A DNA stretch of 33,145 bases. It comes from a virus (Duplodnaviria; Heunggongvirae; Uroviricota; Caudoviricetes). This document shows, piece by piece, positions 6,956-14,849 of this stretch (position 1 is the stretch's first letter; each line of letters begins with the position of its first letter). The notes under the pieces are model-generated. The model searched no databases. It saw only the letters and a list, made by a program, of their open reading frames with translations, and was not told the DNA's origin. The translations under genes and the position numbers were made by a program. The DNA lies in IMG/VR virus record IMGVR_UViG_2534681702_000003, positions 1 through 33,145 of that record; one strand, written 5' to 3'.

Positions 6956-7186
6956 ATGAAAAAATCAGAAGTATTAGGCTATTTTGGCGGAGTTGTTAAA
7001 ACAGCCGCAGCTCTAGGAACGTCAAAAACCACAGTCAGCATGTGGGGGGAAGAGGTTCCGTGGAAATGGGCGTTGCTAATTCAGGCAGTCACTGCCGGGG
7101 CGCTCAAATATGAGTTACACATACCGACGGTTGTCATTCCCGGTTCTGATCATAATCCGCCTTCTAACCAAGGGGGGGATTCATGA
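6956..7186 (+). CDS. Cro-like HTH regulator (YdaS-like)
   Basis: 76 aa from ATG 6956 (GGAG RBS); first gene of rightward operon opposite cI. Confidence 0.65.
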   Translation: MKKSEVLGYFGGVVKTAAALGTSKTTVSMWGEEVPWKWALLIQAVTAGALKYELHIPTVVIPGSDHNPPSNQGGDS

Positions 7187-7608
7187 AAATCAAGCATGAA
7201 CACATCCGCATGGCGATGAATGCCTGGGCGCGTCCTGATGGCGAAAAAGTTCCAGCAGCTGGAATAACCCAGGCTTATTTTGAGTTGGGTATGACGTTCC
7301 CAGAACTGTATGACGACAGCCATCCGGAAGCCCTGGCTCGCAATACCCAGAAAATTTTCCGCTGGATAGAGAAAGACACCCCTGATGCAGTTGAAAAAAT
7401 TCAGGCGTTGTTACCAGCGATCGAAAAGGCAATGCCACCTTTGCTGGTGGCCAGAATGCGCAGCCACAGTTCAGCTTATTTTCGGGAGCTGGTGGAGACG
7501 CGGGAGCGACTGGTGAGAGACGCTGATGATTTTGTCGCAGTGGCAATCGCCGGTTTCAATCAGATGAACCGTGGTGGCCCGGCAGGAAATGCTGTGGCAG
7601 TGCATTGA
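7183..7608 (+). CDS. YdaT-like protein (proposed CII functional analogue)
   Basis: 141 aa starting MKIKHEHI..., as recalled for YdaT; start overlaps cro-like stop. Confidence 0.55.
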   Translation: MKIKHEHIRMAMNAWARPDGEKVPAAGITQAYFELGMTFPELYDDSHPEALARNTQKIFRWIEKDTPDAVEKIQALLPAIEKAMPPLLVARMRSHSSAYFRELVETRERLVRDADDFVAVAIAGFNQMNRGGPAGNAVAVH

Positions 7609-8790: not shown

Positions 8791-9213
8791 GTGGCAAAAG
8801 TTTTTACACAAGAAGAGCGGGAAAAAATTAAAGGGCAGGTTGTTGAACTCGTACGCCAGAGTGGGCGCGAGACGTTACGACAACTGGAAACTAAAACTGG
8901 GGCAACAAGATATCTGATGAGCGTTCTGGCCAGAGAGCTGGTTGCCAGTGGCGATGTATACAACTCTGGTTACGGGTTATTCCCGTCTGAACAGGCGCGT
9001 AAGGACTGGCAAAATGCCCGTAAAAAGCTCTCAAGGGCAAAGCTGAAGAAACCATCTGCGGTTGATCCGGACCTTATCTGGTCATTACCTGACGGAGAAA
9101 TACGTCGCTACGACAGGCGTCAGAACATAATCTGTCGCGAGTGCCGGAAGAGTGAGGTTATGCAGCGAGTGCTGGCGTTTTATCAGGGTAATTTTCAGGA
9201 GGTGATGGCGTGA
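8791..9213 (+). CDS. Hypothetical protein (140 aa), replication-module position
   Basis: GTG start with AGGAGG RBS; no family recognised. Confidence 0.55.
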   Translation: MAKVFTQEEREKIKGQVVELVRQSGRETLRQLETKTGATRYLMSVLARELVASGDVYNSGYGLFPSEQARKDWQNARKKLSRAKLKKPSAVDPDLIWSLPDGEIRRYDRRQNIICRECRKSEVMQRVLAFYQGNFQEVMA

Positions 9214-9505
9214 GAGTGAGAGTCTATATCGCCGGTCCAATGACCGGGTATAAAAATTTCAACCGTGAGGCGTTTCACAATGCGGAAGAGGAACTGAAAC
9301 GGGAAGGGCATACCGTTTTAAATCCGGCTGTGCTTCCGGATGGGCTGACACAGCCGCACTACATGGATATTGCATGGCAATGATTCGTTGTGTGGATGCG
9401 ATTTACATGCTGAAAGGCTGGCAGCGGTCAGCAGGTGCTAAGGCAGAACTGGCGCTGGCGGAGAAACTGGGGCATGCAGTTATTTTCCAGGAGGAGGTAC
9501 AGTGA
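9210..9505 (+). pseudogene. DUF4406-like (nucleoside 2-deoxyribosyltransferase-like) gene split by a frameshift
   Basis: N-part VRVYIAGPMTGYKNF...HYMDIAWQ stops at 9381-9383; C-part MIRCVDAIYMLKGWQRSAGAKAELALAEKLG... continues in another frame from 9380. Confidence 0.5.
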
Positions 9506-9777
9506 ATATCGACGCAACAATGACGATTGGTACGGCCCTCAATACGGGGCTGGCGCTTCTTGGTTGGTGCTACATCATGTTCTGCTCATGGCGGTGGCTG
9601 TCACTGATGTTACTGAAAGAATGGAATAAACGCTGTAAACAGACGCAGCGGCAGAAGGCAATGAATGCGTTTTTTGAGACCTTCGATATTGACAGTATAG
9701 AACCAGGAGAGCCAGCTCGCGTGATTAGCAGAGGTGACGTTGTAATTCTTGTATACCGGAGTGAAGAGAAAGCATAA
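9502..9777 (+). CDS. Hypothetical small membrane protein (91 aa)
   Basis: GTG start after AGGAGGAGG; one predicted hydrophobic helix. Confidence 0.45.
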   Translation: MNIDATMTIGTALNTGLALLGWCYIMFCSWRWLSLMLLKEWNKRCKQTQRQKAMNAFFETFDIDSIEPGEPARVISRGDVVILVYRSEEKA

Positions 9778-9891
9778 TCCAAATCTGAATAATTAAATCC
9801 AGCACTGTAAATAAAATTTAATCCTTAACCGGAGGGATTTCTGCACCCTCAGAACATCAGGAGGCCGCCCGAAAGGGCGGTGGAGATAATA

Positions 9892-10416
9892 ATGGAAATA
9901 ACTAAAGAACGATTATTGGAAATAGCAAATCTTAGTGAAAGGGCATTAAGTGATGGGAGGATTATTTCTCCTGATGCTTATGAATCAGTTACAAGTATAG
10001 AAATAATAACGATGGCCAGGATGCTTCTTGGTTGCCTCAAAAAAGAATATAAAAAAAAGGTGGATAGCAATGCTAATATATATGATATTTTGGACAGTTG
10101 GGGGGCTTGGGCTGCAGCTGGAAATAGTTCTATCAACTGGCAGCAAGTGGCTGATAAATATAAAGATGTAGTACCTCATGGTAAGAAATTACGCCGTCAG
10201 TGTGGCAACGATGAAGGTCGTATGATTGATACCTGCATGTTGAAGCTTAAACAATATAGAATAGATGACTATGAGTTAATTATCGCTCATTTTGTTATAG
10301 GTATATCTTTGCGTACAATAGCACGAAGGTACAAATGTTCAGATGGAACAATAAGAAAGAATATACAACTTACAATGGGAGTATTGTTAGGATTGTCTTT
10401 TTATGTGCAATTATAG
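9892..10416 (+). CDS. Antitermination protein Q-like (phage 82/QuuD family) with about 60-aa N-terminal extension
   Basis: Motifs LDSWGAWAAAG, RRQCGNDEGRMIDTCMLKLK, CSDGTIRKNIQ align with recalled QuuD (WGAWAA, CCDDDAMIICGCMARLKK, CSDGYIGKRLQ); GGTGGAG RBS; GNRA hairpin CCGCCCGAAAGGGCGG at 9864-9879. Confidence 0.65.
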   Translation: MEITKERLLEIANLSERALSDGRIISPDAYESVTSIEIITMARMLLGCLKKEYKKKVDSNANIYDILDSWGAWAAAGNSSINWQQVADKYKDVVPHGKKLRRQCGNDEGRMIDTCMLKLKQYRIDDYELIIAHFVIGISLRTIARRYKCSDGTIRKNIQLTMGVLLGLSFYVQL

Positions 10417-10421
10417 ATATA

Positions 10422-10901
10422 TCACATGAGCCTTGTTATGTCCTTTAGACGCGACCAGGTAGTATAAAATTTTTTAAATGTAATAAGCAGGAAAAAAATT
10501 CCCACTTGGAGTAATAGTTGGGCATATGTGTGCTCGTCGGCATCTTTTACTAGTGGGAATTTAAACTTTAGTGTATCAGGGAAAAATAATAAAATGATAA
10601 AAATAATACAAACTGATAGTAACCATCCCATAGTGGAGTGCATTTCTTCGGTCAGTTTTTTCAAATAACCAGTTTTTCCTATATTTCTAATTAGCGTATT
10701 ATCTCTAGCTGAAGCAATCAAGGTAAGCGAACCTAAAACAAAGCCAAATAATATCCCAGAAAATGTAGAAACGGCCGAAGCGATTGGCTGAATTTGTGCA
10801 AAATTTAGCTTTGCAGAAAGAGGCCATGCGATGATACAAAAAACAACAGAGGCTAAATTATAACCATAACTGTACAAAGTTATCAATTTCCCCTTTTTCA
10901 T
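10422..10901 (-). CDS. Four-helix membrane protein (159 aa), RexB-like architecture
   Basis: Four hydrophobic segments (about aa 16-30, 40-64, 90-107, 126-143); GGAG RBS; 15 bp downstream of the 304-aa gene. Confidence 0.75.
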   Translation of the reverse strand: MKKGKLITLYSYGYNLASVVFCIIAWPLSAKLNFAQIQPIASAVSTFSGILFGFVLGSLTLIASARDNTLIRNIGKTGYLKKLTEEMHSTMGWLLSVCIIFIILLFFPDTLKFKFPLVKDADEHTYAQLLLQVGIFFLLITFKKFYTTWSRLKDITRLM

Positions 10902-10916
10902 ACCATCGCTCCAAAA

Positions 10917-11831
10917 TTAATCAACTCTTTGATTGGCTACTCCAAAGTATGCCTTCAATTCATCATCTTTACTATCTTTTGCAAGAGTTAAGGCGCTCCA
11001 AATGCTGCCAACTAATGGATACCTACCTCCAAGTTCAACATCTGTGTAGTAGACTAATTTGTCTGCTACAAGATCGATAGGATGCTGTACACCGGTCTCA
11101 ATGTCTTGGGTTTCTAGTTTAAGTTTTTCAACCTCAAAAGTCTCTAGTGTTTCTTTAAAGGCTCTTTTTAGTTGAGAACCTAGATAGCGAGATTCAGGAT
11201 CTTCAGAACGACTATCCCCACGTAATGTAAGATTTACTTTGGCAGAATTAGTACCATTTAGAGTGGCTATCAATGCATTGTTGAAGTTATGTTCAATATC
11301 CTCATATAGTTGCACATTCTTTGGCCGAGCGATACCGATTTCTAGAGTTTTGATTCGAACTTCATTACGCATCAACCACTTTAAACTACTGGTCTGAATG
11401 ATGGGATTAACAGTTGTATTTTGTGAACTGTTGGAAAGATATTTACTTAATAGCAACCAGCCATAACAGAGTCTGTTTCGTTGAATTATTAAAACTGAGT
11501 CTTGGGTATAAAAATGAAAATAAGCTTTTTCTAATAAGTTTTCATTGATTTCAAGTTTAATTTCTCTTTCTTCACCTCCGGCTACAGCAACATGAGGGAG
11601 ATTATTGGTTCTGTGTTTTCCTATAACTCCCCTGAAACCATAGTCGGTTCTTTCCATGAAGCGCATTTCAACTAGTTTATTTCCTATTTTACGTACAGTT
11701 TTGTCTCGGCCTTCGCTGTATGACTCAAAAATTTTTGAAAAAACAGCTTCAGGTGAATTAACTCCTGCATTTGTATCAGTGCTTATAGTGTGACATTGAT
11801 AAAAATCGAAGAAAAAGCGCTTGCTAGCCAT
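10917..11831 (-). CDS. Hypothetical soluble protein (304 aa), first gene of two-gene operon
   Basis: Uninterrupted low-GC ORF; no recognised domain; upstream AT-rich 270-bp promoter region. Confidence 0.75.
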   Translation of the reverse strand: MASKRFFFDFYQCHTISTDTNAGVNSPEAVFSKIFESYSEGRDKTVRKIGNKLVEMRFMERTDYGFRGVIGKHRTNNLPHVAVAGGEEREIKLEINENLLEKAYFHFYTQDSVLIIQRNRLCYGWLLLSKYLSNSSQNTTVNPIIQTSSLKWLMRNEVRIKTLEIGIARPKNVQLYEDIEHNFNNALIATLNGTNSAKVNLTLRGDSRSEDPESRYLGSQLKRAFKETLETFEVEKLKLETQDIETGVQHPIDLVADKLVYYTDVELGGRYPLVGSIWSALTLAKDSKDDELKAYFGVANQRVD

Positions 11832-12154
11832 TGCAAAAATTTCCTGTAAAAAATAATTACATACTTAAGATACTACAAAGAATAATGCGTACGCAAAATT
11901 TTTTGTTGAGTAGAATATGTTCGCGGGGTATTTTTCGTTAAGATATAATTACCATGGTAACTTTTGCGTTGGTAATGCATTATGTGGTGGAGAAAAAGAG
12001 AGAGTCTTATCTTTAAATTATCGCCAGCCTATATGACTATATGAGTAGTATTTAGATGGGAAATTGTTGAGTTATTGAAAGGAACCATAACCTTTATGTA
12101 AAATTACTGCGGGTGCTTGAGGTTATCTGTCTCAGGCATGCCACCAAAAGGCAG

Positions 12155-12232
12155 ATAGAGAAAAGCCCCAGTTAACGTTACGCGTCCTGCAAGACGTTTA
12201 ACATTAATCTGAGGCTCAATCTATGAACGGCA
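12155..12232 (-). ncRNA. Predicted Sok-like antisense RNA
   Basis: Inferred from hok/sok organisation; candidate minus-strand promoter TTGCCT-17-TAACCT inside mok 5' end; boundaries approximate. Confidence 0.3.
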
Positions 12233-12435
12233 AATCTAGGTTAGCCTCTTACGTGCCGAAAGGCAAGGAGAAGCAGGCTATGAAGCAGCAAAAGGCGATG
12301 TTAATCGCCCTGATCGTCATCTGTTTAACCGTCATAGTGACGGCACTGGTAACGAGGAAAGACCTCTGCGAGGTACGAATCCGAACCGGCCAGAAGGAGG
12401 TCGCTGTCTTCACAGCTTACGAACCTGAGGAGTAA
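12223..12435 (+). CDS. Mok-like in-frame leader ORF overlapping hok
   Basis: 70-aa ORF whose last 51 codons are hok; same arrangement as mokC/hokC. Confidence 0.5.
   Translation: MNGKSRLASYVPKGKEKQAMKQQKAMLIALIVICLTVIVTALVTRKDLCEVRIRTGQKEVAVFTAYEPEE
12280..12435 (+). CDS. Hok/Gef-family type I toxin
   Basis: 51 aa MKQQKAMLIALIVICLTVIVTALVTRKDLCEVRIRTGQKEVAVFTAYEPEE, near-identical in pattern to recalled Gef/HokC; AAGGAG RBS. Confidence 0.85.
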   Translation: MKQQKAMLIALIVICLTVIVTALVTRKDLCEVRIRTGQKEVAVFTAYEPEE

Positions 12436-12503
12436 GAGACCAGGTGAGGGAGAAATCCCTCGCCACCTCTGATGAGTCAGGCATCCTCAACGCACCCGCA
12501 CTT

Positions 12504-12530
12504 AACCCGCTTCGGCGGGTTTTGTTTTTT
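12504..12530 (+). terminator. Rho-independent terminator of hok transcript
   Basis: AACCCGC-TTCG-GCGGGTT followed by TTTGTTTTTT. Confidence 0.7.
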
Positions 12531-13932: not shown

Positions 13933-14298
13933 ATGACTGAACGCATAGAATTTGTTTTGCCTTACCCGCCAACGGTGAACACTTACTGGCGACGTCGTGG
14001 CAGCACATATTTTGTATCAAAAGCCGGTGAGCGTTATCGCCGTGATGTGGCGCTTATTGTTCGCCAGCAGCGGCTGAAATTAAACCTGTCCGGAAGGCTG
14101 GCGATAAAGATTATTGCAGAGCCACCGGATAAACGTCGTCGTGACCTGGACAATATCCTGAAAGCACCACTGGATGCGCTGACGCATGCCGGACTTCTCA
14201 TAGACGACGAGCAGTTTGATGAAATCAATATTGTGCGCGGTCAGCGCGTTCCTGGGGGGCGGCTGGGCGTGAAGATTTACAAAATTGAGAGTGAGTGA
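13933..14298 (+). CDS. rusA: Holliday junction resolvase RusA
   Basis: 121 aa; LPYPPTVNTYWRRRG...RRRDLDNILKAPLDALTHAGLLIDDEQ matches recalled RusA pattern. Confidence 0.85.
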   Translation: MTERIEFVLPYPPTVNTYWRRRGSTYFVSKAGERYRRDVALIVRQQRLKLNLSGRLAIKIIAEPPDKRRRDLDNILKAPLDALTHAGLLIDDEQFDEINIVRGQRVPGGRLGVKIYKIESE

Positions 14299-14849
14299 TC
14301 GTAAATATGATATACCCGGAAATTACAGGCAAAAGCGGCGAGCATTTACGTCTAAAAACGCTGGAAGCCGTCTGGATCCAGGGGAAATTACGGATGTGGG
14401 GGCGTTGGTCGTATATAGGTGGTGGCAAACCAGGAAATATGTTCAATCAGTTGCTGGCATCCAAAAAACTGACAAAAACCGCAATCAATGAAGCCCTGCG
14501 TAGAATCAGGGAGTCAGGGATTGATAAACCAGAGCTGGAAGCATTCTTGCGAGAGATGATCGCTGGCAGACAGAAGAGCTGGTTGTCTCACTGTACTGAT
14601 GCAGAGGCGTTACGCATTGATGGGGTGATAAGTAAAGCGCTTGCACGTTATCCTGGATTGATTGATATCCTGCGGCAAAGGTACGAAGGGCGGGGGATGA
14701 GTAAACGCAAAATGGCTGAATTGTTGAATGAGGTGCACCCGGAATGGTGTTTTAGTACATGCGAAAAGCGAATTGCTAATTGGTTAGCTGTTGCTGAATA
14801 TGCGCTATACATCCCTATGCGAGAATCGTTTGCTCAAAAAATGTCTTGA
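14295..14849 (+). CDS. Putative late-gene antiterminator (Q-like)
   Basis: 184 aa directly after rusA and before a terminator, tRNAs and lysis genes; MWGRWSY motif and HTH-like GMSKRKMAELL; family not confirmed. Confidence 0.5.
   Translation: MIVNMIYPEITGKSGEHLRLKTLEAVWIQGKLRMWGRWSYIGGGKPGNMFNQLLASKKLTKTAINEALRRIRESGIDKPELEAFLREMIAGRQKSWLSHCTDAEALRIDGVISKALARYPGLIDILRQRYEGRGMSKRKMAELLNEVHPEWCFSTCEKRIANWLAVAEYALYIPMRESFAQKMS

Follow-up and report, generated by a model that had tools for sequence, protein, structure and literature searches.

An N-terminally extended Q21/QuuD-family protein in a lambdoid prophage, accompanied by Rex-like cargo and a candidate Q-binding palindrome

We analysed a stretch of 33,145 nucleotides of viral DNA (Caudoviricetes; IMG/VR record IMGVR_UViG_2534681702_000003, positions 1 to 33,145, hereafter the window) and focused on a gene for an N-terminally extended Q-type protein, which we call Q-ext. 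Its open reading frame (ORF) runs on the + strand from an ATG at 9892 to the stop codon at 10414-10416 and encodes 174 amino acids, with an alternative GTG start at 9880. By sequence and by fold, Q-ext is a real and intact member of the Q21/QuuD family (PF06530), and it is not a standard late antiterminator, as it lies outside the late-gene position and the intact promoter that would partner it is gone. Q-ext belongs to a low-GC module of 2.3 kb, in which it is followed by a reversed pair of RexB-like and RexA-like (DUF6731) genes, here called the cargo, and then by a 10-bp palindrome. Our working hypothesis, to which we assign a probability of about one half, is that Q-ext would bind this palindrome and regulate, probably repress, the cargo promoter during lytic growth, rather than switch on late genes.

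Family, fold and ancestry of Q-ext

The Pfam profile Phage_antitermQ (PF06530) matches residues 62-168 of Q-ext over profile positions 3-109 of 118 (E=2.6e-30; 105.2 bits, well over the cutoff of 26), and the PHROG 79 family, annotated 'Q-like', matches at E=2.5e-32. These matches bear out the original prediction, made from the DNA letters, of a Q-type protein behind an extension of about 60 residues; the extension counts 59. The motifs named in that prediction (WGAWAA, QCGNDE and CSDG) are all present and fall on family-invariant columns, and indeed every family-invariant residue is kept. The complete Q domain occupies 10069-10416 (+ strand; codons 60-174 plus the stop), and an identical coding sequence of 174 codons in Escherichia coli ATCC 43896 is annotated in RefSeq as 'antiterminator Q family protein'. 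The AlphaFold2 (AF2) model of the Q domain has a predicted local distance difference test score (pLDDT) of 85-94. When this model was searched against the PDB with Foldseek, Q21 took all of the top 12 places (prob 1.0, E 3e-4 to 3e-2), ahead of domains of sigma region 4, and Q21 is also the only PDB protein that matches Q-ext in sequence (E=9e-4).

Two details of the prediction had to be revised. The label Q82 is ruled out, since PF06530 is the family of Q21 and Q933W whereas Q82 belongs to PF06323 (PMC9388147), and in the Pfam search neither PF06323 nor PF03589, the family of lambda Q, matched Q-ext at E<=0.1. QuuD of the cryptic prophage DLP12 belongs to PF06530, like Q-ext. The start had been placed at 9864, which is the base preceding a hairpin; the actual start codon is the ATG at 9892. 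The prediction was right, on the other hand, that Q-ext stands outside the late-gene slot and that another Q-like gene holds it: the gene at 14295-14849 (+ strand) encodes a DUF1133 protein (PF06576, E=6e-103; 28 bits with PF06530), which is a Q of another type and whose late-promoter region is different as well. Q-ext itself has the replication/nin genes on one side and hokD on the other, and in the prophages that carry it the true late Q is either of the DUF1133 type, as in the window, or of the lambda-Q type (L008-L014), so that Q-ext is not tied to the late regulator.

Codons 1-59 of Q-ext (9892-10068, + strand) form a separate helical module, for which the AF2 model is of low confidence (pLDDT 38-51). 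Residues 1-63 match a separate phage family, phrog_3323 (E=8e-16), and the module also heads unrelated proteins of 193 and 206 aa (61% and 55% identity); a tblastn search with the extension alone gave no match among sequenced phages. Codon 60 lines up with Met1 of the canonical short Qs, and Q-ext has lost the start codon at this point. Because the extension is an independent module that heads unrelated proteins, Q-ext is a chimera in which a resident N-terminal module is joined in frame to a captured block composed of a Q gene and its moron. Two large proteins, P0165 (1813 aa) and P0168 (581 aa), each contain six distinct stretches that match the 50-aa N-terminal module of Q-ext, so that elsewhere it may also occur as a tandem repeat unit.

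The likely source of the captured block is found at late positions. The segment 10069-11832 of the window is colinear, at 73% identity, with the late region of a Klebsiella variicola prophage, in which a canonical 122-aa PF06530 Q occupies the late position and the same gene pair is convergent with it, overlapping its 3' end. This match begins exactly at the codon equivalent to the canonical Met1 (10069) and stops at the start codon of DUF6731, in agreement with the earlier suggestion that Q-ext derives from a captured fragment of another phage's Q-moron region. Furthermore, the four short late Qs sampled in E. coli all have convergent cargo abutting their 3' end, with cargo families like those at the Q-ext slot, and a scan of IMG/VR showed a Q followed by reverse cargo, of at least 15 types in total, at every locus with enough sequence. 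The association extends to a palindromic site, as Q, reverse cargo and site are found together in all 45 distinct late loci and all 22 distinct Q-ext loci with enough sequence, and likewise in an overall count of 65 distinct loci. The site lies 980-3758 nt from the Q stop codon, and at the late loci the late promoter comes after it.

Pairwise identity is 85-90% among late Qs, regardless of their cargo, 65-81% among Q-ext domains and 55-64% between the two groups. This pattern points to two clades, late Q and Q-ext, drawing on one cargo pool, and led us to reject the idea that the Q type covaries with the cargo type. All members of the Q-ext clade lack the canonical Met1, and the clade has a single origin. 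We conclude from these comparisons that the Q gene, the reversed cargo and the candidate target site of Q moved together from the late-gene region to a second prophage hotspot.

Within the Q-ext clade, the ratio of nonsynonymous to synonymous substitution rates (dN/dS) of the Q domain is 0.09-0.25, at synonymous divergences (dS) of 0.5-1.4. The extension has too few changes in close pairs for a measurement, and its more diverged pairs give dN/dS values of about 0.15-0.4; its dS is low (0.03-0.58), which identifies it as part of a recently shared flank. The corresponding dN/dS of late Qs is 0.02-0.06. Q-ext is therefore under purifying selection, but is less tightly constrained than late Q.

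A candidate Q-binding element between two promoters

Beyond the cargo, at 11886-11895, the window contains the perfect 10-bp palindrome TGCGTACGCA. We infer that it is very probably the Q-binding element (QBE) of Q-ext, because the site covaries with the recognition helix of Q over six classes. The site, which is the likely point where Q-ext acts, had escaped the original prediction. BLAST did not reveal any conserved region upstream of the cargo, and manual comparison of the intergenic DNA beyond the cargo yielded a short motif only: the 12-mer GCGTACGCAAAA, which overlaps the palindrome, is present in every locus compared, late and Q-ext, and has one exact occurrence in the window (11887-11898). 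Among loci with enough sequence, the site was found in 22 out of 22 distinct Q-ext loci and in 45 out of 45 distinct late loci of the class to which the helix of Q-ext corresponds (CSDGTIRK). The form of the site differs between the two sets, as all 22 Q-ext loci have the perfect palindrome TGCGTACGCA whereas the late loci have CGCGTACGCA in 43 cases and TGCGTACGCA in 2.

At the late loci, a rightward promoter is conserved and its -35/spacer region contains the motif, which is followed by TGTTAAGAGTGGTTACTTCG and then by an intrinsic terminator. Viral contigs were scanned for this constant late-promoter backbone (TGTTAAGAGTGGTTACTTCG plus terminator), and the comparison includes the loci L122 (DLP12 of E. 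coli K-12) and L123-L242. The element located 17 nt upstream of the backbone is an inverted repeat in all six classes, and its sequence tracks the recognition helix of Q: the helix KCSDGTIRKELQ goes with the site CGCGTACGCA, CCSDGYIGKRLQ (QuuD) with TTACGTACGTAA, GRSDCWVGRLLQ with TTACAATCGTAA, KKDEKLIRIEIQ with CGCGGTCCGCA, KSDEKRVRIVIQ with CGCGGGCCGCA and GISLNQVVIRLQ with TGTTATAACA. One of the six classes includes loci in which the site comes directly after Q, without cargo. Q-ext retains both the CSDGTIRK helix and the matching site, and the palindrome is absent from the region downstream of the DUF1133-type Q gene in the window.

On the cargo strand, the palindrome supplies the hexamer TTGCGT, which is the -35 of the predicted cargo promoter (11867-11896, - strand; -35 TTGCGT at 11896-11891, an 18-nt spacer and -10 TATCTT at 11872-11867); the cargo start codon is at 11831. 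A cargo-strand TAnnnT after 17-18 nt (offset 22-23 from the palindrome) is found in 29 of 31 distinct cargo flanks and in five of the six Q-ext cargo types. Because the palindrome supplies the -35 of the cargo promoter, the late and cargo promoters would stand back to back and share the candidate QBE, which is positioned at about -32 to -23 of the late promoter and at -34 to -25 of the predicted cargo promoter.

In the window, the late promoter PR' that would partner Q-ext is reduced to a remnant (11896-12093, + strand). Compared with the late loci (AAAAAGTATTGTATCGTGTTAAGAGTGG...terminator), a deletion of about 7 nt removes the -10, and both the initial transcribed region and the terminator are missing. 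Loci L002 and L051 likewise lack the rightward -10, the initial transcribed region and the terminator, whereas a hexamer resembling a -10 is still present at the late-promoter position in some other Q-ext cargo types (L003/L015/L023, L004 and L005). A promoter scan of the + strand gave no promoter-like hit between 11281 and 12075 and no promoter-like site upstream of Q-ext.

Possible functions of Q-ext

Our hypothesis of a cargo regulator can be formulated as follows. Q-ext would be made only while the early rightward operon is transcribed, because it has no promoter of its own. It would then bind TGCGTACGCA at 11886-11895 and occlude the cargo promoter, the -35 of which is contained in the site, and unterminated antisense read-through from Q-ext into the cargo would add to the silencing. 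The outcome would be a Rex-like cargo that is on in the lysogen and off in lytic growth, and it would be biologically sensible for an abortive-infection module to be silenced while its own prophage grows lytically. The antisense component is plausible. As originally predicted, the stop codon of Q-ext is 5 bp from that of the convergent membrane-protein gene (10422-10901, - strand) with no terminator separating them, and a terminator scan of 9400-12500 gave a single hit, weak and on the - strand, at 10507. Such read-through would be generic to the whole short-Q clade and not peculiar to Q-ext.

We also considered a broader and more tentative scheme, which we think possible though doubtful, in which a short Q would do two jobs throughout a clade of lambdoid prophages via one palindrome between back-to-back promoters, namely loading onto RNA polymerase at the late promoter and shutting off the divergent promoter of an exchangeable cargo for defence or lysogenic conversion. 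The arrangement would constitute a built-in switch, with cargo on in the lysogen and off in late lytic growth, and Q-ext would be a derivative that has lost the late-promoter job, has gained a new N-terminal module and is carried with the cargo to a second hotspot as a dedicated regulator.

Several observations weigh against a role of Q-ext as a cargo repressor. Its dN/dS is 3-5 times that of late Qs, indicating relaxed constraint, and residues in the N-terminal half of the Q domain, the part that forms the RNA-exit nozzle in Q21, are also conserved, which favours retained engagement of RNA polymerase over a pure repressor. Type-2 Q-ext loci have no -10 at the canonical offset. Covariation is the single ground for assigning the QBE, Q21 itself recognises a direct repeat and not a palindrome (bioRxiv 10.1101/651190), and the site could be kept solely as the -35 of the cargo promoter. 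Finally, Q-ext is found in none of 50,697 sequenced phage records, and the host prophage contains pseudogenes according to RefSeq.

Classical late-gene antitermination from the site at 11886-11895 is unlikely in the window. Q-ext might still be a working antiterminator. It would act either on other lambdoid phages, resident or incoming, whose late promoters have a QBE of this class (CGCGTACGCA), or on what is left of a rightward promoter by its own QBE, and terminator-resistant transcription would then reach hok, the nin genes and the prophage's true late Q. Its recognition helix is the same as that of the late clade, conservation extends over the whole Q domain, the 'PHGKK.R.QC.DDEG' segment included, with a predicted Q21-like fold, and the -10-like hexamer persists in the three groups of cargo types mentioned above. 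We nevertheless consider this role improbable given the loss from the window of the late-promoter -10, initial transcribed region and terminator, the lack of a promoter-like + strand site between 11281 and 12075, and the fact that the window's own late region has no QBE and that no target in trans emerged from our analysis. In addition, the 59-aa extension replaces the free N-terminus beside the nozzle-forming part of the protein. A further variant, in which Q-ext would load onto RNA polymerase starting at the cargo promoter and render leftward transcription terminator-resistant through the cargo and antisense into the early operon, seems to us very improbable. The QBE is positioned there at -34 to -25, near its -32 to -23 in the late promoter, and a perfect palindrome presents the site leftward too, at 22 of 22 Q-ext loci versus 2 of 45 late loci. 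However, the 31 flanks show no -10-like pause element at a conserved position after the cargo -10, and no terminator is predicted within the operon that would have to be overcome.

Alternatively, Q-ext might be a mere passenger, its sequence persisting because it arrived with the cargo and serves as the left homology arm for cassette exchange, in which case regulation would be limited to passive antisense read-through and the protein itself would have no role. The relaxed constraint relative to late Qs, the confinement of the gene to prophages, some of them decaying, and the low dS of the N-terminal part, as expected of a recombination flank, would all fit, as would a frameshifted variant (P0163) that leaves the Q-ext frame after codon 55 and yields a product of 92 aa. 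Yet none of 22 distinct loci from E. coli and Salmonella has a disrupted ORF, dN/dS values of 0.09-0.25 at dS up to 1.4 accumulated inside the single-origin Q-ext clade, and the cognate palindrome is perfectly kept amid DNA that cannot be aligned on either side. We therefore regard the passenger scenario as unlikely and retain regulation of the cargo promoter by Q-ext as our preferred explanation.

The hotspot, its cargo and known systems

The prophage is lambdoid and Rac/Qin-like, and Q-ext and its cargo lie in a low-GC island (about 9780-12200; 33-40% GC, compared with flanks of about 50%) that is bordered by DUF4752 and hokD. The whole island is present in 19 of 5,426 complete E. coli genomes and the Q-ext gene alone in 68. 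In other prophages, the same slot contains a closely related Q-ext (82-88% DNA identity) and a convergent operon that is always within 0-20 bp of it and differs from one prophage to another: a 406-aa protein with an NA37 protein, a three-gene set with a PD-(D/E)xK-like protein, a pair of 182 and 309 aa, and others. The loci are homologous from 9816 up to a point within the 3' end of Q-ext (about 10352-10386) and again from 12094-12101, in hok/sok. In prophages that lack Q-ext, the shared sequence is limited to the leader with its hairpin and the first 6-12 codons. Our literature searches on this hokD-adjacent hotspot and on Q-like defence proteins returned nothing relevant.

The left border of the hotspot is a conserved leader (9820-9891, + strand), which holds the hairpin CCGCCC-GAAA-GGGCGG at 9865-9880 and a Shine-Dalgarno sequence, GGAG, at 9882-9885. 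Mean column identity of the leader is about 87% over 10 loci, two of which are prophages without Q-ext, and the first 60-80 nt of a query spanning 9850-10420 (about 9850-9930 of the window) recur in many E. coli genomes; the leader thus marks the left border in many E. coli prophages irrespective of the gene that follows. The perfect GAAA-tetraloop hairpin noticed upstream of the ribosome-binding site is therefore real, but it is not specific to Q-ext. It is not an intrinsic terminator, because no U-tract follows the stem, and the stem shows wobble changes only, without compensatory covariation (folding z = -1.64 for the leader). On these grounds we rejected the hairpin as a terminator or a regulatory element specific to Q-ext. 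Its GCCC/GGGC stem and GAAA loop bear what we take to be a resemblance to the boxB stem of lambda. At two Q-ext cargo types, L051 and L002, GGAGGGATTTGCTG or CCTCAGGAGG is found just beyond the palindrome and resembles the leader of the left flank (GGAGGGATTTCTGCACCCTCAG...CAGGAGG); this leader-like DNA may represent a duplicated junction of the original insertion.

The right border is a conserved hok/sok locus (12094-12435, + strand), a type I toxin-antitoxin system recognised by the Rfam sok model (108.7 bits at 12111-12285) and by the RefSeq annotation hokD, the ORF of which ends at 12435. The stretch that comes right after hokD and precedes the DUF968, RusA and DUF1133-type Q genes (12444-12525, + strand) gives a sub-threshold match to isrK (24 bits for a gathering score of 50, E=0.023), which may be due to chance. 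IsrK of the Salmonella prophage Gifsy-1 is linked to the control of a Q-like antiterminator. The prophage also shows signs of decay: two separate ORFs (9210-9383 and 9374-9505) make up DUF4406, and at the identical locus of ATCC 43896 (L001) RefSeq reports frameshifts in a Cro-like gene (about 7000-7190 of the window) and in DUF4406, and an incomplete gene for the terminase large subunit.

The first cargo gene (10917-11831, - strand) encodes a 304-aa DUF6731 protein (PF20505, E=2e-12) with a predicted RexA-like fold. The best PDB match of its AF2 model (mean pLDDT 74) in Foldseek is lambda RexA (8twq; E=4e-7, prob 1.0, TM score of about 0.4), and RdgC ranks third. PADLOC 2.0 did not match DUF6731 to any known system, including RexA at the sequence level, and DUF6731 is absent from the literature that we searched. 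The second gene (10422-10901, - strand) encodes a hydrophobic 159-aa membrane protein of phrog_8552 (E=2e-68) that weakly matches the RexB profile of PADLOC (E=0.0015, 16.9 bits). On the basis of these models and matches, the two-gene cargo at 10422-11831 looks Rex-like. Across Gammaproteobacteria, the phrog_8552 gene is paired with DUF6731 in every case, and the pair is a self-contained module that is found without any Q in Rahnella, Photobacterium and Endozoicomonas. In Endozoicomonas it adjoins defence-type genes (AAA_15/HNH, Mrr and NERD). The occurrence of the pair without Q, in settings that resemble defence islands, led us to reject the idea that the DUF6731 system needs Q as a third component. 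Several other reverse cargo sets also combine a soluble and a membrane protein, such as NA37 with the 406-aa protein, which has a hydrophobic C-terminus, and the five cargo sets that we scanned with PADLOC gave no significant match to a known defence family. The slot between short Q genes and their site looks like an unexplored reservoir of candidate defence systems. At least 15 distinct reverse gene sets adjoin short Qs (late-position short Qs at L038-L041 and L063-L121, Q-ext at L002-L005 and L045-L061), and none of those scanned matches a known defence system, which makes the slot a source of candidate systems.

If our proposal is correct, a -35 embedded in a Q-binding site would provide a rule by which the defence cargo of prophages is on in lysogens and silenced in lytic growth, and Q-ext would exemplify an antiterminator repurposed after the loss of its promoter partner. 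The covariation described above also supplies candidate Q-binding elements for six classes of short Qs. Our literature searches found nothing on a relocated, N-terminally extended paralog, on palindromic class-specific Q sites, on an embedded cargo promoter or on the breadth of the cargo pool.

Among characterised proteins, Q21 of phage 21 (PF06530; PDB 6P18, 6P1A and 6JNX) shares with Q-ext the Pfam family and the predicted fold, with a helix-turn-helix resembling that of sigma region 4, and it acts via a QBE beside a promoter. The two proteins differ in several respects: identity in the fold matches is about 16-20%, the Q domain of Q-ext has about 115 aa compared with 162 for Q21, and Q-ext has the 59-aa extension. 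Moreover, the site of Q21 is a direct repeat whereas that proposed for Q-ext is an inverted repeat, and Q-ext stands off the late position without a partner late promoter, pause site or terminator. Lambda Q belongs to an unrelated family, PF03589; its QBE lies between the -35 and the -10 of PR', and the candidate site of Q-ext is likewise in the -35/spacer region of the promoter that it would act on. We know of no divergent cargo promoter that shares the QBE of lambda.

The cargo is comparable to lambda RexA/RexB in that both are prophage-borne two-gene systems whose gene order agrees and whose gene sizes are similar; the first cargo protein has a predicted RexA/RdgC-like fold and the second is a small multi-pass membrane protein with a weak match to RexB. 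It differs from them in genomic position, in promoter and in the lack of a RexA match at the sequence level. Much closer to Q-ext are the short late Qs of the CSDGTIRK class in E. coli and Klebsiella prophages (for example WP_001205460 and the 122-aa Q of K. variicola), which are 55-64% identical to its Q domain and have the same helix and QBE core (GCGTACGC). Their reverse cargo comes from the pool that also supplies Q-ext, DUF6731 with its membrane protein included. Unlike Q-ext, they start at the equivalent of its codon 60, stand upstream of an intact late promoter and lysis genes, and have a dN/dS of 0.02-0.06. The closest known arrangement to the Q-ext module is that of QuuD, the reverse porin gene nmpC and the late promoter in DLP12, where a short Q, a convergent moron, a palindromic site and the same late-promoter backbone with its terminator follow one another in the same order. 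QuuD differs from Q-ext in its late position, in the absence of an extension and in its helix (CSDGYIGKRLQ) and site (TTACGTACGTAA).

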